A stretch of 41,958 nt of DNA from an uncultured Planctomycetaceae bacterium (lineage in GTDB: Bacteria > Planctomycetota > Planctomycetia > Pirellulales > UBA1268). Each line of letters begins with the position of its first letter. Position 1 is the stretch's first letter. Below, one piece after another: positions 2,432 to 10,244 of the stretch. The notes under the pieces were generated by a model, which was not told the DNA's origin, did no database searches, and saw only the letters and a program-made list of their open reading frames with translations. The translations under genes and the position numbers were made by a program. The stretch spans positions 1-41,958 of the forward strand of contig CAIWZS010000033.1 of the NCBI GenBank assembly GCA_903917235.1. Direction: 5' to 3'.

Positions 2432-3226
2432 TCAGGTTCCGGACGGCCTGGCTGCCAGCCGCAGGAGGTCGATTGCGGCCCGGAGCATCTGCGGGCCCGA
2501 GAGCTTCGACCCACGCACGTCCCGCCAGGCCTCGAGCGGGAGCTCATGAATGCCCGCGGTCGCCTCTCCAGATCCCAGCGCGCCCCGGACGCGGAGAAGT
2601 CGCTGGAGGATCTCGATGTCGAGCAGCCAGCGTGTCGCGAACGGGATGTCGAAAATTCCCTCCCGGACGGCGTCGGCGCGGAAGAGCTTCGCACCGCACT
2701 GGGTGTCGTAGACCCGCAGCCCCAGCACCCACGACGCCGCCGTGGCGAACAGCCGACCGAGGTAGTGCCGCAGGGGCGACCGCCGGATGTCGCGTCCGAG
2801 CAGGGCGACGCGCGAGCCCATCACCATGACAACCTCGGGTCGGCGCTCGAGCAGCTCGACGAAGCGGCCCAATTCATCCAACGGCGTGGCGAGATCGGCG
2901 TCCCAGTAGCCGACGGCGTACGGGAGCCCGCCCAGCGCCTGCAGCACGCCGCGTCGCACCGCCTCCGCCTTACCGCCGTTGGTCTCGAGGGGCAGCACGT
3001 CCACCACGGCTGGCGCCCTTGCCCGGAGCGCGTCGAGCACGACCCGAGTGTCGTCACGACTTCCGTCGTCGACGAAGAGAAACCTCACCCGCGGCAGCGC
3101 CGAGGCACAGGCGAGAAAAGGCTCGCCGTGAAGCCGCTTGCCCTCGTCGAAGCAGGGCACGACGATGACCACGTCGGTGCCATGAGAAACCGGTTCCGCT
3201 CGTGCGGCTGTCGCGACCGCTGACAC
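2432..3226 (-). CDS. GT2 glycosyltransferase, dolichyl/polyprenyl-phosphate beta-glucosyltransferase (ALG5/DPG synthase)-like
   Basis: VVPCFDE, VDDGSRD, NGGKAEAV, YWDADLATP, DTQCGAKLF, WLLDIEIL, WRDVRGSKL. Start chosen at GTG 3226; the track start 3265 overlaps the upstream gene. Confidence 0.85.
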   Translation of the reverse strand: MSAVATAARAEPVSHGTDVVIVVPCFDEGKRLHGEPFLACASALPRVRFLFVDDGSRDDTRVVLDALRARAPAVVDVLPLETNGGKAEAVRRGVLQALGGLPYAVGYWDADLATPLDELGRFVELLERRPEVVMVMGSRVALLGRDIRRSPLRHYLGRLFATAASWVLGLRVYDTQCGAKLFRADAVREGIFDIPFATRWLLDIEILQRLLRVRGALGSGEATAGIHELPLEAWRDVRGSKLSGPQMLRAAIDLLRLAARPSGT

Positions 3227-3233
3227 GTCGTTC

Positions 3234-4079
3234 TCAGCGCGGCCTCGGGCGGATGACGACTTCATGGACGGCGTCCCGCGTCGCCGGCCGCATGCCCGCC
3301 GCGTCGCCGTCCACCGACGCCTCCCGCCGCAGCACCGCGATCAGGCTCACGCCGCTCCCGTGGACCGTCCGGCTCCCGGCCTTGAGGTTGCGGAGCAGCC
3401 CGCGCCGCTCGCCCGCGAACACGCGGTAGAGGAGGTAATTCATCGGTGCCGAGGGCATGGCGAGGTCGGTGCCGGCCGCGCCGGAGCGAAATCCCGGTGG
3501 TCGCATGCGACGCACGAGACGCACGAGGGGCTCGAGTCGGGTGTTGAGCGGCGCGAGCAGGTGGCATGAGACCGGCAGCGACTGCCAGAGCGCCGCGAAC
3601 AGGTCGGGGTCGTAGCGCCGGTAATGCCCGAGCACCTCGTCGTGGGTACTCCAGAGCGTCATGTCGGCGGGCACCGTGAGCACGAACCAGGTGCCGGGAG
3701 CGCATCGCTCCACGATGTCGCCCAGCAGCCCGGAGTCGTCCTCCACGTGCTCGAGCACGTCGGACATCACGACGGCCCGGACGTCGGCGATCCGACCGGC
3801 GAGCACGTCCGGTGCCCGTCCCTCGAGGAATTCGCACCCGGGATACTTCGACCTCGCGAGTTCGATCGCCGACGCGGACGGATCCACGCCCACGGTCCGG
3901 AACCGACCGGTGAGCGCGGCGACCGTGCCACCGGTGCCGCAGCCCACATCCACGACGAGGGGGTCCTTCTCGGTTCCGAGCAGTTGTGTGATGATGTCGA
4001 GGAGGATGCGGCGGCGGGCGACGAACCACCAATGCCGGTCCTCATGGGCGGCATGCGCTGCGAACTGGGCCTCATCCAT
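3234..4079 (-). CDS. Class I SAM-dependent methyltransferase (glycosylation-cluster type)
   Basis: EDRHWWFVARR, VVDVGCGTGG, GVDPS, DVLEHVEDD, LTVPA..LWSTHDEVLGHYRRY; start at ATG 4079 (MDEAQF). Confidence 0.9.
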   Translation of the reverse strand: MDEAQFAAHAAHEDRHWWFVARRRILLDIITQLLGTEKDPLVVDVGCGTGGTVAALTGRFRTVGVDPSASAIELARSKYPGCEFLEGRAPDVLAGRIADVRAVVMSDVLEHVEDDSGLLGDIVERCAPGTWFVLTVPADMTLWSTHDEVLGHYRRYDPDLFAALWQSLPVSCHLLAPLNTRLEPLVRLVRRMRPPGFRSGAAGTDLAMPSAPMNYLLYRVFAGERRGLLRNLKAGSRTVHGSGVSLIAVLRREASVDGDAAGMRPATRDAVHEVVIRPRPR

Positions 4080-4246
4080 GACGGAACCGGGTGAGTGCAG
4101 CATGCCTTCAGATCACCGTGGATCGCCGACCGGCGGGGCCTGCCCGCTCCTCCTCCATTGTTCATTGCGTTGAACGGAAAAGCCACCGTGGCCCGGGGTC
4201 CGACCGGATCAGCCGGCCACCAGCCTTCGTCGTCCCCGAGGAGCGC

Positions 4247-6097
4247 ATGAAGACTCGTGCGCCTGGGCCCCCGAGCCGGCCTGCCTTGGGGTCGGGGGAA
4301 TCGGTCGGCCCACGACGTGCGGACGTCGCCTGGTCGCTCGTCCTCGTGCTGCTCGTGGCAGCCGGCTGGGGAGTCGGGGTGGGCCTGCAACGCTGGTCGC
4401 TGCCGCTCTCCTCCCCGACGGATGGCTTTCGCGGCGACCTGCTCTTCCATCTGGCGTTGGTCAGGGCCTCGATGGAGGGCGATTTTCCACCGGTGCTTTG
4501 GAAGACGGTGCCGTCACTCGGCGCGCCCGATGGCGCGCAATGGAACGACTGGCCCGTCGTGGAGGAACTGCCCACGCTCTGCATGGCCATGATCGGTCGG
4601 ATCGTGGGGTTGGTGGCGGGCTACAACGTCAGCCTGCTCACGTCGTGCCTGCTGGCCTCCCTGACCTTCTTCACCGTCGCGCGGGCTTCGGGGTGTGCCC
4701 GCCCGTGGAGCTTCGTGGGAGGCCTTGCCTTCGGGCTCGCGCCGTGCACGTTCGCGCAGACGCCGCACCATCCCTTCATCGCCCAGGCATGGCATGTCCC
4801 CTTGTTTCTGCCGATCTGGAGGTGGGTCACGACCGGGGACGGGATCGTCTGGCGGAGCCGTCCCTTCTGGTTCGCCGTCGGCGTGGGCGCCGTGACCGGG
4901 CTGCAGAGCCCCTATTACACGAACATCTTCTGCCAGGTGACGCTGCTCGGGGGCCTGGTGACCTTCGCGCGGAACCGCACCGGACTGGCGTCGGCCGCCG
5001 CGGTCGTGACCGCAGCCGCGGCCGCCTTCGCCCTCATGAACGTGGACACCTGGACCTATCGGCTGGTCCACGGCGCGAACCCTGGGGCGTTGGTCCGCGA
5101 GTACAAGTGGCTGGAGATCTACGGGCTCAAGATCGTCGACCTGCTGATTCCGCCGCCGACGCACCGGATCCCCGCGTTTGCGGCCTTCGCCACGGCCCAT
5201 CGGGCGGTTGCACCGCTGCAGGACGAGGGCTCCTACCTCGGGGTCGTCGGCATCGCCGCCCTGCTGCTGCTCGTCGGTACCGCCGTTGCAGCGGTCGTGC
5301 GCCGCCGTGACGAGGGCGTGCCGATCGAGGCATGGTGGGTGCTCTGGATCGTGCTCGTCTTCTCGACCGGAGGACTCAACGCGGTGCTCGGTGCGTGCGG
5401 GCTCACGCTGTTCCGGACGGGGTGCCGCTATGCCGTCGTCATCCTCGCGATCGTGCTGCTCTTCGCGGCACGACGTCTCACGGCATGGGAGGACCGGGCC
5501 CCGCCAGATGCTTCGTCAGCAGAGACCAGACGCATCGGAATCCTGACGGCCGTCGCCGCCCTCACGACACTCGTGCTGATCGATCAGGTACCACGGTCGC
5601 CGGGCCCGGAACAGGTCGCGCTGATCGCCCGTCAGGAGGCCGCCGATCGCGATTTCGTGGCACGGATGGGCGCCGCACTGCCGGCACGCGCGTCCGTGTT
5701 CCAGCTGCCGGTGATGGATTTTCCGGAGGCCCCGCTCCCGAGCATCCCCGCCTACGATCATCTGCGGCCGTTCGTGCAGGGGGGGGACCTGCGCTACTCG
5801 TTCGGCTCGACGAAGGGACGGCCGCAGGATCAGTGGCAGCGGGAGATCGAGCAGCAGCTGCTCGCTGCTGCCACTCCGAACCAGGAGGCCCGCCGGCTCA
5901 ATTTCGACCCGGCGGCGGTCCGCCGTGTCGTCGCAGCGCTGCGAGAGCGCGGCTTCTCCGCGATCTACCTCAACCGCAACGGGTTCCCCGATCTGGGCCG
6001 TGGCCTGCAGCTGGCCCTCCGGGACGCGGGATGCGACGCGGACGCCATCGAAAGCCGAACCGGAGACCTCGTCTGCATCGTCCTGCCCGCTTCCTGA
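4247..6097 (+). CDS. Polytopic membrane protein with C-terminal soluble domain, putative GT-C-type glycosyltransferase
   Basis: GAGGAG RBS before ATG 4247; about 10-12 hydrophobic segments; acidic first loop (DGFRGDLLFH); soluble tail FQLPVMDFPE..YDHLRPF..LRYSFGSTKGR. GT-C function is inferred from topology and context. Confidence 0.7.
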   Translation: MKTRAPGPPSRPALGSGESVGPRRADVAWSLVLVLLVAAGWGVGVGLQRWSLPLSSPTDGFRGDLLFHLALVRASMEGDFPPVLWKTVPSLGAPDGAQWNDWPVVEELPTLCMAMIGRIVGLVAGYNVSLLTSCLLASLTFFTVARASGCARPWSFVGGLAFGLAPCTFAQTPHHPFIAQAWHVPLFLPIWRWVTTGDGIVWRSRPFWFAVGVGAVTGLQSPYYTNIFCQVTLLGGLVTFARNRTGLASAAAVVTAAAAAFALMNVDTWTYRLVHGANPGALVREYKWLEIYGLKIVDLLIPPPTHRIPAFAAFATAHRAVAPLQDEGSYLGVVGIAALLLLVGTAVAAVVRRRDEGVPIEAWWVLWIVLVFSTGGLNAVLGACGLTLFRTGCRYAVVILAIVLLFAARRLTAWEDRAPPDASSAETRRIGILTAVAALTTLVLIDQVPRSPGPEQVALIARQEAADRDFVARMGAALPARASVFQLPVMDFPEAPLPSIPAYDHLRPFVQGGDLRYSFGSTKGRPQDQWQREIEQQLLAAATPNQEARRLNFDPAAVRRVVAALRERGFSAIYLNRNGFPDLGRGLQLALRDAGCDADAIESRTGDLVCIVLPAS

Positions 6098-6221
6098 ACG
6101 ACGACAGCCGACACGGTGGTCGATCCGTGCCGTTCGCTGGGCCCGTGAGGCACGTGCGCTTTCTGTTACCGTTGGGGGCGGCCGGCGGTCGGCCCCCGCG
6201 CCTTCGCCTCGAGACCCGACG

Positions 6222-8210
6222 ATGACGTCGCTCAACCGCAGCAGATCTTCCGAACCCCGTTCGACTTCAGCGTCGGCAGCGAGCGCCCATGCCGCCTCGG
6301 GCGCGGTGATCGCCGACGGGTCCAGTGGTCCGTCGGGGGACGTGCTGCTCCGCGGCGCGGTGATCGTGCTCGCCGTGCTTTGGGTCTACGCCCCGGTCTG
6401 TCATCCCGTCTTCGCCCCCGAGTGGCTCTGGGACGACGACACGCTGCTCACGGCGAACGCGACGGTTCAGTCCACGACGGCGGCGTCCCTTTCCAAGATC
6501 TGGTTCAACCCCGATGGGGTCGACTACTTTCCGCTGAGCTACACGGCCCTGTGGCTCCAGTGGCCGCTCTTCGGCGGCTGGTCCTCCGGCTATCACGCCG
6601 TCTCCATAGCACTTCACGCGATCGGCAGCCTTCTGCTCTGGCGGTTGCTGGCAGTGATGCGGGTGCCGGGAAGCTGGCTGGCGGCGCTCATGTTCGCGGT
6701 GCATCCGGTGTGCGTCGAATCCGTGGCATGGGTGTCGGAACTCAAAAACACGCTTTCATTGCCGCTGTTCCTTGTGGCTGCCATCCATTTCGTGTCGTTC
6801 GACGATCTGGCCCATGGCCGGTCGAACGGAACGCCCGTCGCATCCGCCGGTGCGGAACGGCACTACTGGCTCGCGCTCGCGTTCTTTCTGCTCGCCATGT
6901 TCGCCAAGACGTCGGTCGTGATGCTGCCGGTGGTCCTGCTCCTCTACGTCTGGTGGAAGCGCGGGCGAGTGGCCGTTCAGGACGTGGTCCGGGCAGGACC
7001 GTTCTTCCTCGTGTCGCTCGTGCTTGGGCTGGTCACACTCTCTTTCCAGCACGGTCGGGCGATCGGCGACGAGGCGATCATCGTCGGTGGACTCGCATCG
7101 CGCACCGCGACCGCGGGACTTTCGATTCTCTGGTATCTGTGGCTCATGCTCTGGCCCGTGAACCTGCTTCCGATCTATCCGCGCTGGGAGGTCGACCCTC
7201 CCCGCGTCTGGCAGTTTCTCGCCTGGCTTCCGATCCTCGGTGGGCTCTGGGCCTGCTGGAGGCATCGCGATGCGACCGGTCCGCCCGGCTGGGAACGCTG
7301 GGGCCGCCACGCGATCTTCGCCTTCGGCTTCTTTCTGCTCATGGTGTTCCCGGTGCTCGGGTTCGTGACCATCGCGTACATGCGGATCACATGGGCGGCC
7401 GACCACTTCATCTACCTGCCGATGATCGGCCCGATCGCCCTCGTTGCGGCCGCGCTGGCGACGGGAGTGCGGCTGGTGCCGGAGCGGTTGCAATCGCTGA
7501 TGCCCGTGTGGATGACCTGCGTCCTGGTCTGGTTGGCGGCGCTCTCCTATCGCTATGCGGGGGCCTGGGTCAACGAGGACGCCCTCTGGACGCACACGCT
7601 CGCGCACAATCCCGACGCGTGGCAGGCGCACAACCGGCTCGGCGTCATGAAGTACTCCCGGGGACACATCGACGACCTCGAGCCCGCCGACGGCATCCGC
7701 AGCGTCGGAGCCTTGCATCACTTCACGCGGTCGACGGCGCTGCGGCCGGATCTCGGCGAGACGCACAACAACCTCGGCCTTGCGCTCTCGGCGAAGGGGC
7801 GCCTCCCGGAGGCCATCGAGCAGTTCCGTGAAGCCGCCCGGGTGACACCGAGGGATCCACGCATCCGGGTCAACCTCGCCAACTCCCTGGTGGCCGTGGG
7901 GCGGTTCGAGGAGGCCGCCGCGATCTACGAGGCGCTCCTGAGATTCCAGCCCGACAACCCGGCGCTCTTGTGCAACCTCGGCGTGACTCTCCACCGTCGC
8001 GGGCGACGCGACGAGGCGATCGTGCTTTTTCGTCGGGCGCTGTCCATCGCGCCGAATCTCAAGGACGCTCAGGAGAGCCTCGCGATCGCGCTCCGCGAAA
8101 AGGCCGATGAGAACCCTCCCCCCGGAGCGGTCGAGGCAGGCCCCGGCCCCGTGCCGGAGAGGCCAGCGTCGCCCTCACCCGTACCGGAGCGGGCCGCACC
8201 CGGAAGCTGA
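6222..8210 (+). CDS. TMTC-like membrane protein: multi-TM N-terminal domain plus C-terminal TPR repeats (putative protein O-mannosyltransferase)
   Basis: First loop WLWDDDTLLTANATV resembles the TMTC DD..I..N motif; YFPLSY, FAVHPVCVESVAWVSELK, AMFAKTS, ADHFIYLPMIG, W.NEDALW; several TPRs (HNNLGLAL, RVNLANSL, LCNLGVTL). Confidence 0.8.
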   Translation: MTSLNRSRSSEPRSTSASAASAHAASGAVIADGSSGPSGDVLLRGAVIVLAVLWVYAPVCHPVFAPEWLWDDDTLLTANATVQSTTAASLSKIWFNPDGVDYFPLSYTALWLQWPLFGGWSSGYHAVSIALHAIGSLLLWRLLAVMRVPGSWLAALMFAVHPVCVESVAWVSELKNTLSLPLFLVAAIHFVSFDDLAHGRSNGTPVASAGAERHYWLALAFFLLAMFAKTSVVMLPVVLLLYVWWKRGRVAVQDVVRAGPFFLVSLVLGLVTLSFQHGRAIGDEAIIVGGLASRTATAGLSILWYLWLMLWPVNLLPIYPRWEVDPPRVWQFLAWLPILGGLWACWRHRDATGPPGWERWGRHAIFAFGFFLLMVFPVLGFVTIAYMRITWAADHFIYLPMIGPIALVAAALATGVRLVPERLQSLMPVWMTCVLVWLAALSYRYAGAWVNEDALWTHTLAHNPDAWQAHNRLGVMKYSRGHIDDLEPADGIRSVGALHHFTRSTALRPDLGETHNNLGLALSAKGRLPEAIEQFREAARVTPRDPRIRVNLANSLVAVGRFEEAAAIYEALLRFQPDNPALLCNLGVTLHRRGRRDEAIVLFRRALSIAPNLKDAQESLAIALREKADENPPPGAVEAGPGPVPERPASPSPVPERAAPGS

Positions 8211-8232
8211 CGGGCCGTCTCCCTGCCCCGCG

Positions 8233-8991
8233 TCACCATCCCAGCCAGGTGCGCCGGGCGAGTCGCACGAGATCACCGATGCTCCGGCAGCTCTCCGCCA
8301 GGCCCGCCTTGCTCCTGCCACGGGTGCGATCGGTGAACGTGATGGGCACCTCCACGATCCGCCCTCCGGCCCGATGCACCCGCCAGAGAAAATCCTCCTG
8401 GAACGCGTAGCCTTCCGCGAACGGTCCCGTGACGCGGCCGAGCACTGCGAGCCGCACCGCCCGGAAGCCGCTGGAGGCGTCGCGCACCGGCACGCCGAGC
8501 ACGAGTCGGGTGAACCAGCAGACGAGCCGGCTGGCGACGTGACGTGAGAGCGGCCATCCCACGACGCGTCCCCCCGGCACACGACGCGAGCCGATGGCGA
8601 CCGCCGGCGATCCGGGGCCGCCCGGGCCGAGCGCGGCGACGAGTCGGGGGACGTCGGCCGGATCGTGGCTGAAGTCGGCGTCGAGATTGACGACGATCTC
8701 GAAGCCGTGTCGCCTGGCGAGTTCGAGGCCCTCGAGCGTGGCCGAGCCCAGGCCGCGCCGCCCGCGACGCACGAGCACGTGCAGCCGCGGCTCCTGATCG
8801 GCCCGTTCGAGCACGAGCCGGCCCGTGCCGTCGGGCGAATCGTCGTCCACCACGAGCACCTGGAGCGCCGGGTCGACCGCGAGCAGGGCGTCGACGAGCG
8901 GCCCGATGTTGTCCCGCTCGTCGAACGTCGCCGCAAGGGCGATCACGCGTCCGGGTGGCCATGCCTCGGACGATCGCAGGTCGTCAGCCAT
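8233..8991 (-). CDS. Polyprenol monophosphomannose synthase (DPM1/Ppm1-like GT2)
   Basis: [68 protein letters not shown]; 8-nt overlap with the trxB stop suggests coupling. Confidence 0.9.
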
Positions 8992-10057
8992 GGGAGTGCG
9001 CGAGCCAGCGTTCGGCGTCGAGGGCCGACATGCAGCCGGTGCCCGCCGCCGAGATCGCCTGCCGGTAGTAGTCGTCGGCGACGTCGCCCGCCGCGAACAC
9101 GCCCTCCACGCTCGTGTCGGTGCGGAAGTGCTTCTTCCAGACGATGTATTTCTTGGCCGTCAGCTCCAGCTGGCCGTCGAGGAAGGCCGTGTTGGGCGTG
9201 TGGCCGATCGCGAGGAAGACGCCGGCGGCCTCGACCTCGGTCGTGCGTCCCCGCTCCGTCGTGCTCTCGAGCCGGACACCCGTCACCCCGCGGGCGTCGT
9301 CCCCGAGCACCTCGGCGAGCGCCTGGTTGAAATGGATCGTGATCTTCGGGTCGTCGACCGCCCTCTGGGCCATGATCTTCGACGCACGCAGCGTGTCGCG
9401 GCGGTGCACGAGGTGCACCGTGCTCGCGAACTTCGTGAGGTAGGTGGCCTCCTCGACGGCCGAGTCGCCACCGCCGACCACCACGAGCGGCCTGTTGCGG
9501 AAACGTGGCAGCGCGCCGTCGCACACGGCGCAGGCGCTCACCCCCCGGTTCTTGAAATGCTCCTCGCTCGGCAGGCCGAGCCAGTTGGCGCTCGCGCCGG
9601 TCGCCACGATCACGGCACGTGCCGTGATCTCGCCACCGGCCGCCGGAAACAGCCGGAAGGGACGTCGCGAGAAGTCGACCCGCTCGATGTCGTCGGTCAC
9701 GATCCGCGTGCCGAAGTTGACCGCCTGCTGACGCATGAGCTCCATGAGTTCCGGTCCGGTCACGCCGTGCCCCTCGTGGGGTGGCATCATCATCCTCCGC
9801 TCCGACGGCAGGGCGGAGTCGAGGAAGCGGCCGAGGTCGCCCGCGGGAAAGCCTGCGTAGTTCTCCACCTCGCTCGTGAGCGCGAGCTGGCCGAGCGGCA
9901 GCGTGCCGGCCATGCGATTCTTCTCCGAGATCGCCCCCTCGAAGACGAGCGGCTGCAGCTGGGCACGGGCGGCGTACGTCGCCGCGGACCACCCCGCGGG
10001 GCCGCTCCCGATGATGACGACGGTCTCGGCGGCGGTGGCGGAACGGGAATCAGCCAT
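8984..10057 (-). CDS. trxB: Thioredoxin-disulfide reductase
   Basis: [38 protein letters not shown] (CxxC), [41 protein letters not shown]; CAGGAG RBS before ATG 10057. Confidence 0.96.
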
Positions 10058-10244
10058 GACGACGGGCTCCTGGAGTGGTCGGGCACGGGCGGTCGTCCCT
10101 GTCGACGACGCGTTGGCGAACGGGCATGATGGTGGAGGCCGCATCGCTGCGGAAGGGCCGCTCGACGTTTCGCGTGCCGGCCCGCGGTGATCGTGGTCGC
10201 GTCACGGAGGTCCCCGTCCCGGGCCTCACGGAGCCCCGGCCACG

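Follow-up and report, generated by a model that had tools for sequence, protein, structure and literature searches.

What function, if any, unites five adjacent planctomycete genes that code for two family 2 glycosyltransferases (GT2-A and GT2-B), a methyltransferase and two polytopic membrane proteins (M3 and M4)? These genes lie between a phosphofructokinase (PFK) gene and a Pyr_redox_2 gene in a 41,958-nucleotide contig of an uncultured Planctomycetaceae bacterium (CAIWZS010000033.1, assembly GCA_903917235.1), the whole of which we call the window; its G+C content is about 70%, and the real reading frames were chosen by codon-position GC together with translation. An earlier note on this DNA had read the five genes as a single module for lipid-linked glycosylation that parallels the pathway of the eukaryotic endoplasmic reticulum (ER). 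The five adjacent genes, and all the motifs quoted for them, are present in the translations. We consider that the cluster is probably an extracytoplasmic (periplasmic) glycosylation module dependent on polyprenyl-phosphate-linked sugars, with a conserved core that differs from the five genes as they stand here.

The conserved unit

M3 (4247-6097, + strand, 616 aa) and M4 (6222-8210, + strand, 662 aa) run in the same direction with a gap of 124 nt, and GT2-B (8233-8991, - strand, 252 aa) is convergent with M4. Using M3, we fetched 80 loci, of which 45 with at least 4.5 kb of downstream sequence make up the downstream tally and 50 with an upstream flank the upstream one. The order M3-M5-M4-GT2-B, in which M5 is a third GT-C protein, occurs in 16 of the 45 loci, M3-M5-GT2-B in five, and M3-M4-GT2-B, the arrangement of the window, in four or five; four more have M5 and M4 with GT2-B not in range, and 12 show none of these arrangements. 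GT2-B stands directly after M4 or M5 in 27 of the 45 (50-74% identity), a tight synteny that agrees with the proposed co-location of M4 with a donor synthase. Moreover, the M3-M4-GT2-B order persists in loci where identity has dropped to 36-50% (L083). The conserved functional unit is therefore a set of several GT-C enzymes plus a DPM1-like synthase, M3-(M5)-M4-GT2-B.

This redraws the five-gene module. The methyltransferase and GT2-A are absent from the 50 loci with an upstream flank, save for one relative that is 92-98% identical, and PFK directly abuts M3 in several relatives' loci. Within Planctomycetota the pair belongs to a subclade, which keeps the full order Pyr_redox-GT2-B-M4-M3-methyltransferase-GT2-A-PFK at 62-70% identity for GT2-A and 60-67% for M3 and M4. 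As M3 occurs in loci that lack GT2-A, it cannot be assigned exclusively to a glucose donor made by that enzyme, which is how the earlier note had connected the two.

M5 (about 520 aa, two or three tetratricopeptide repeats (TPRs), TMTC-like) is encoded between M3 and M4 in the majority of relatives and takes the place of M4 in some, and the window's genome lacks it; examples are found at L016:9744-11318, L007:3978-5597 and L011:2680-4227. It is closer to the TMTC proteins than M4 is, with the segments FAVHPVVTEAV and AADRYLYLP and a sub-threshold match to DUF1736 (1.7e-3); a match to Mannosyl_trans4 (7e-5) is also sub-threshold. An open reading frame of 309 aa with no Pfam match lies between M3 and M5 at L007:3088-4017, and a 52% identical fragment is present at the edge of contig C340 in the window's genome. 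Bins with the M3 cluster include some labelled Kuenenia, Chthoniobacter, Chitinophaga and Chryseolinea (L010, L016, L020, L024, L033, L039, L045, L077, L082); some of these labels look like binning or classification errors, and those of verrucomicrobial type (Terrimicrobiaceae, for example) may be correct.

M3: a predicted GT-C fold outside the curated libraries

M3 has no match in Pfam, NCBIfam or the PDB sequences. Its homologs number in the hundreds, are about 600-630 aa long, come nearly all from planctomycete-type metagenome bins and have no Pfam domain either. We modeled M3 with AlphaFold from 32 homologs (predicted local distance difference test score (pLDDT) 81; predicted template modeling score (pTM) 0.85) and compared the model with the PDB by Foldseek. 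All nine matches at E<=1e-3 are GT-C proteins, including STT3A (2.5e-6), AglB, AftA, ArnT and AftD, with template modeling scores reaching 0.52-0.56 (AftA 0.52; ArnT 5f15 0.51/0.56); EmbA/B, AftB and Pmt4 come next after these nine. Given that every significant match is to a GT-C protein, M3 is predicted to be a polytopic GT-C-fold glycosyltransferase with a C-terminal periplasmic alpha/beta domain (about 478-616), and to represent a family outside every curated library. The acidic first loop that had drawn attention to M3 is real: D64, D101, E106 and E107 are invariant in the 32 homologs. D64 is found where the first loop helix begins, and we infer that this position is the one where GT-C enzymes place their catalytic Asp. 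The Joint Genome Institute (JGI) name 'phosphoglycerol transferase' attached to M3 homologs was rejected, as they have no sulfatase/AlkP domain and the predicted fold is that of a GT-C.

M4: a putative bacterial GT-C with a TMTC-like architecture

M4 combines a polytopic domain (about 37-448) with a TPR array (about 452-623), in which Pfam recognizes TPR families at about 497-630, amounting to four or five repeats. The membrane part has no Pfam or NCBIfam match. The family is very large, with 37,844 representatives of 50%-identity clusters at E<=1e-3 and 3,661 at E<=1e-30. Among 66 homologs at 32-55% identity, 27 match PMT_2 (PF13231; best 1.6e-10), and when the membrane part is taken alone, 8 of 19 family members do so, M4 itself giving no match. 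On the strength of these matches the M4 family would, by transitive homology, fall within the ArnT/PMT-type GT-C superfamily. That both membrane proteins are of GT-C type, as had been proposed, is thus upheld, for M3 by predicted fold and for M4 by family.

The first loop of M4 carries EWLWDDDTLLTAN. W70, D71, D72, L76, T77 and N79 do not vary among 32 homologs, and D71, D72 and N79 are conserved in at least 90% of the 66 representatives, so that the suspected loop-1 DD motif is indeed a feature of the family. In an AlphaFold model of M4 (pLDDT 80.6, pTM 0.80) the list of helices would fit 11 transmembrane (TM) segments, with the conserved motifs confined to every second loop, provided that helix 291-310 belongs to a loop, as it does in TMTC.

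Animal TMTC1-4, which we take to be CAZy family GT105, are O-mannosyltransferases of cadherins that depend on dolichyl-phosphate mannose (Dol-P-Man) and, like M4, begin with a polytopic GT-C domain and end in a TPR array. They are also paired with a donor synthase of DPM1 type, as M4 is with GT2-B. The resemblance extends to individual motifs when M4 is set against the conserved features in a published analysis of the human TMTCs (PMC7801869). The DD of external loop 1 (EL1) corresponds to W70-D71-D72; SHKSYRP, before TM2, to DYFPL (Y-x-P-L); and the acid of EL2 and the Lys of EL3 (D169/K219) to E173/K229. LLFAVHPIHT of TMTC3 and LMFAVHPVCVE of M4 have FAVHP in common, and AERV in EL5 resembles AADHFIY of M4 as A-[ED]-x-x-x-Y. 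The predicted helix pattern of M4 is likewise compatible with the 11 TM segments of TMTC. There are, however, clear differences. D394, H395 and Y398 are invariant in EL5 of M4, which thus has His where TMTC has Arg; R388, six residues upstream of the aligned position of this segment, is invariant among close homologs only. DUF1736, the hallmark of TMTC EL4 (the TM7-TM8 loop; E<1e-30 in human TMTCs), finds no match in M4 at any threshold tried, and EL4 has about 50 residues in M4 as opposed to about 75 in TMTC. M4 has only four or five TPRs, unlike TMTC; its setting would be the bacterial periplasm rather than the ER. The TPR array of TMTC is lumenal, and that of M4 is probably placed on the equivalent, periplasmic side. 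M4 is hence best described as a putative bacterial PMT_2-superfamily GT-C with a TMTC-like architecture and not as a member of the TMTC family: of the likeness claimed earlier, the DD, FAVHP, the EL2 acid, the EL3 Lys, the A-D-H-x-x-Y of EL5 and the C-terminal TPRs stand, while DUF1736 and the EL5 Arg do not.

Nor is a parallel to the ER pathway as unprecedented as it had been made to appear, since a bacterial protein glycosyltransferase with GT-C and TPR domains is already known. TfpW of Pseudomonas aeruginosa is a pilin O-arabinofuranosyltransferase of GT-C type that carries a DDX motif, has a TPR domain in the periplasm and is predicted to have 11 TM segments (bioRxiv 10.1101/2020.04.19.049825). 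By description, rather than by sequence, it is like M4 in being an inner-membrane GT-C of similar size (646 versus 662 aa), with DD(x) in periplasmic loop 1 and a C-terminal TPR domain, and it has been modeled on ArnT, with a polyprenyl-phosphate monosaccharide as its donor. This donor carries D-arabinofuranose, unlike the hexose that we propose for M4, and tfpW directly follows its client gene pilA, whereas M4, between PFK and Pyr_redox_2, has no linked client gene; nor is a pilin-like gene conserved next to M4 in relatives. In the literature searched, TfpW was the only bacterial TMTC-like enzyme with experimental work.

GT2-B and related donor-transferase pairs

GT2-B has a Glycos_transf_2 domain (Pfam, 9.1e-20), no membrane segment and the DxD motif LDADFSH. 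It matches the catalytic domain of the solved P. furiosus Dol-P-Man synthase 5mlz over residues 15-229 (E 2.5e-23), in keeping with its designation as a DPM1/Ppm1-like enzyme, and may be a polyprenyl-phosphate mannose synthase. NCBIfam matches (AglJ, PpgS, a Dol-P-hexose transferase, ArnC) all remain far under the cut-offs.

Bacteria offer several comparable systems. Actinobacteria have protein O-mannosylation by Ppm1 and Pmt as well as GT-C mannosyltransferases dependent on polyprenyl-phosphomannose (PPM) (PMC3485146, PMC8698208). The catalytic domain of Ppm1 is like GT2-B in that it has no membrane anchor of its own and feeds GT-C enzymes outside the cytoplasm. In contrast, Pmt belongs to GT39, has no TPR and contains PMT and PMT_4TMC domains, to which neither M3 nor M4 gives a match, and the genes of our cluster lie together, unlike the actinobacterial ones. 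The GtrA/GtrB/Gtr and ArnC/ArnE-F/ArnT systems resemble the cluster in having a GT2 polyprenyl-phosphate sugar synthase and a GT-C side by side, and M3 has ArnT as one of its best structural matches; the cluster departs from them in having several GT-Cs per synthase and a TPR arm.

A proposed mechanism and its acceptor

We posit that GT2-B, as a peripheral protein on the cytoplasmic face, would transfer a hexose, most likely mannose, from a nucleotide sugar to polyprenyl phosphate, and that a flippase, not among the cluster genes, would then move the lipid-linked hexose to the periplasmic leaflet. There, M4 would act as a TMTC/PMT_2-type transferase whose catalytic DD opens periplasmic loop 1 and whose TPR arm lies in the periplasm, and M3, which has a periplasmic domain of its own and a predicted fold like that of ArnT, AftA and STT3, would use the same lipid-linked sugar. 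By analogy with TMTC and TfpW, M4 would modify membrane or exported proteins, its TPR arm would dock either these clients or a partner, and M3 would extend the same glycan or modify a second acceptor. In the subclade, the inserted methyltransferase and GT2-A probably supply a second hexose donor, possibly O-methylated.

Several results weigh against this scheme. M4 matches none of the GT-C models of Pfam even at E<=10; the 50 matches listed, out of 227 at E<=1e-3, in a fold search with its full-length model are all TPR proteins; and profile hidden Markov models of its membrane domain, run against the PDB sequences, reached only TPR matches at the domain boundary and neither ArnT nor PMT. Alignments by hhalign of the M4 profile with the M3 profile, E. 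coli ArnT and single neighboring membrane proteins were all uninformative; one with a PMT_2 protein of the same genome pairs WDDD with WDEDE and AKTS with AKGP, and this is weak (E 0.0025, probability 12%) and is not relied on. DUF1736 (PF08409) was found neither in M4 nor in the whole genome at E<=10, nor in 19 membrane-only family members at E<=1. On the donor side, sugar specificity is not readable from sequence for GT2s of the kind of GT2-A and GT2-B. The flippase GtrA (PF04138) has no match in the genome at E<=0.01, ArnE/F-type (EamA) proteins not having been searched for. On the acceptor side, GT2 and GT-C pairs of Gram-negative bacteria, such as ArnC/ArnT and GtrB/Gtr, often modify lipid A or O-antigen and not proteins; no candidate acceptor gene is syntenic with the cluster, its neighbors being PFK, the Pyr_redox_2 gene and TIM-barrel genes; and the structural neighbors of M3, though they include oligosaccharyltransferases (OSTs), are mostly glycan or lipid transferases (AftA, ArnT, AftD, Emb).

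These last points bring up an alternative with the same chemistry and a different acceptor, namely an envelope glycan or lipid: lipid A or the core of lipopolysaccharide (LPS), a glycolipid, or a chain of the cell wall or of an exopolysaccharide. Successive or alternative sugars would then be added by M3, M5 and M4 in the manner of ArnT, FlmK/LgmB, Gtr or the mycobacterial PPM-dependent mannosyltransferases, and the TPR arm would serve to hold either the polymer or a partner protein. Beyond the structural neighbors of M3, this would account for a row of GT-Cs with one donor synthase, which resembles stepwise glycan building, and for a locus set among housekeeping genes of conserved order with no client gene linked to it. 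Furthermore, TPR domains are also part of polysaccharide export machinery, and the NCBIfam matches of the M4 TPRs include BcsC, PgaA and VexE. Yet, no LPS or polysaccharide biosynthesis genes adjoin the cluster, and the sole characterized enzymes with exactly this GT-C and TPR architecture, TMTC1-4 and TfpW, act on proteins. We regard an envelope glycan or lipid as a serious, if less likely, alternative acceptor. Because of TMTC1-4 and TfpW we lean toward a protein as the acceptor of M4; this lean is a weak one, given the missing client gene, the company M3 keeps among the glycan and lipid transferases and the good fit of several GT-Cs with one synthase to a stepwise-built envelope glycan.

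A wider reading of the protein acceptor would place M3-(M5)-M4-GT2-B at the center of a machinery for the general O-glycosylation, probably O-mannosylation, of proteins in Planctomycetota and perhaps Verrucomicrobiota. In it, the GT-Cs would act in sequence on exported proteins, the methyltransferase and GT2-A would contribute a methylated hexose by way of a lipid-linked intermediate, and the whole would be a prokaryotic counterpart, possibly even the ancestral stock, of the eukaryotic TMTC pathway. We offer this as a speculation that is unlikely to hold in full. To our knowledge, no glycosylation enzyme has been assigned in Planctomycetota. Their envelopes are rich in surface proteins, and only one planctomycete glycoprotein has been characterized, the Kuenenia S-layer with its methylated O-glycan (PMC5088730). 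Members of the M4 family number in the tens of thousands, none of them tested in bacteria, and the conserved M3-M5-M4-GT2-B order provides a compact, testable target. The logic of a synthase coupled to GT-Cs is already well known; accordingly, the value of the locus lies not in a new principle but in the definition of the M3-(M5)-M4-GT2-B unit and in the Pfam-less M3 family, which adds to the GT-Cs not covered by curated libraries and is a constant partner in the cluster, along with the cross-phylum cassette formed by the methyltransferase and GT2-A.

The methyltransferase and GT2-A as a probable cassette

GT2-A (2432-3265, - strand, 277 aa) is a TM-less GT2 of the ALG5/DPM1/ArnC type (Pfam Glycos_transf_2, 5.7e-15) and a putative polyprenyl-phosphate hexose synthase, perhaps for glucose. 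Its identification as ALG5-like was only partly borne out. The motifs DADLATP, DTQCGAKLF and GSKL are there, and the members of its 90% cluster and homologs at 52-70% identity bear the JGI name dolichyl-phosphate beta-glucosyltransferase, an automatic annotation; the sole match among PDB sequences, however, is a weak one to ArnC (7.4e-5). ALG5 has an N-terminal membrane anchor, and the GT2-A sequence shows none of this kind. Its family is very widespread, consisting of TM-less enzymes of about 250 aa with 52-59% identity across phyla. The methyltransferase (3234-4103, - strand) is a class I enzyme dependent on S-adenosylmethionine (Pfam Methyltransf_23, 1.5e-13, plus _25, _12 and _11), with generic matches only in the PDB.

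Could this pair be functionally unrelated to M3, M4 and GT2-B, a chance insertion between PFK and M3 that serves a GT-C or a non-lipid acceptor elsewhere? Its absence from nearly all other M3 loci and the loci in which PFK abuts M3 would agree with this, as would the other GT-C genes of the genome on contigs C209, C324 and C411. But four unrelated contexts in other phyla (L092:1916-8438, L093:5001-8062, L094:3287-6720 and L095:1-5804) each have a GT2-A homolog (53-58% identical) that adjoins a GT-C-type protein and is accompanied by a class I methyltransferase, so that landing beside a GT-C here would fit a pattern; the methyltransferase directly adjoins the homolog in three cases and lies three genes off in L095. 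The GT-C-type neighbors are variously PMT_2, PMT+PMT_4TMC and a pair of GT22 genes accompanied by a small EamA-like membrane protein, and the methyltransferase has orthologs beside GT2-A homologs in L093 (43% identity over 260 aa) and L094 (32% over the full length). In addition, the arrangement of the window persists in relatives whose GT2-A is merely 62-70% identical. From this recurrence, the pair thus appears to be a cassette that travels with GT-C enzymes, and we rate an unrelated chance insertion as rather unlikely, though possible. The cassette also suggests a route to methylated sugars via lipid-linked donors. The earlier idea of a methylated lipid-linked sugar gains support from the cross-phylum contexts, in which the methyltransferase goes with GT2-A and a GT-C; this support does not extend to M3 in particular. 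A cross-phylum triad of methyltransferase, GT2-A and M3 was dropped, the 630-aa neighbor in L092 not being a detectable M3 homolog; the association with GT-Cs in general stands. L092 codes for an EamA-like membrane protein of 123 aa, a flippase candidate, and an NAD-dependent sugar epimerase/dehydratase.

That M4 is non-catalytic, a TPR scaffold or chaperone on a degenerate GT-C-like membrane anchor with M3 alone transferring sugar, would suit its lack of a direct GT-C Pfam match and the His in place of the EL5 Arg, a residue that is conserved in TMTCs and that, in OSTs, binds the donor phosphate, but this is very improbable in view of the strong constraint on the DD, H161/P162, E173, K175, K229 and D394/H395, invariant or nearly so in thousands of relatives, and of His395, whose invariance in 66 diverse family members points to a retained function.

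Transcription units and related neighborhoods

The five genes form three transcription units and not one operon. The methyltransferase and GT2-A, which overlap by 32 nt and are translationally coupled, are followed by PFK (1190-2332, - strand), which makes up the outer flank of the cluster beside GT2-A. This unit is divergent from M3 and M4, from which the intergenic region 4104-4246 separates it. Promoter and terminator scans gave nothing above chance, with no sigma-70-like match in 4104-4246, and no small membrane-protein gene is present between 1190 and 10144. On the other side, the Pyr_redox_2 oxidoreductase gene (thioredoxin-reductase-like; 8984-10144, - strand) lies upstream of GT2-B and overlaps its start by 8 nt; this pairing is kept in the subclade relatives L089-L091 and not across the wider set of loci.

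The genome has at least four neighborhoods that combine a synthase with GT-Cs. A second module on contig C411 (2796-10584; L002-L004) has three M4 paralogs (25-33% identity to M4) clustered within 8 kb, preceded by a GT2-B-like gene (29% identity). The others (L085-L087) include two tandem genes with strong PMT_2 matches at C209:870-3163 and a GT2-B-like gene adjoining a weak PMT_2 match at C324:5668-7239.

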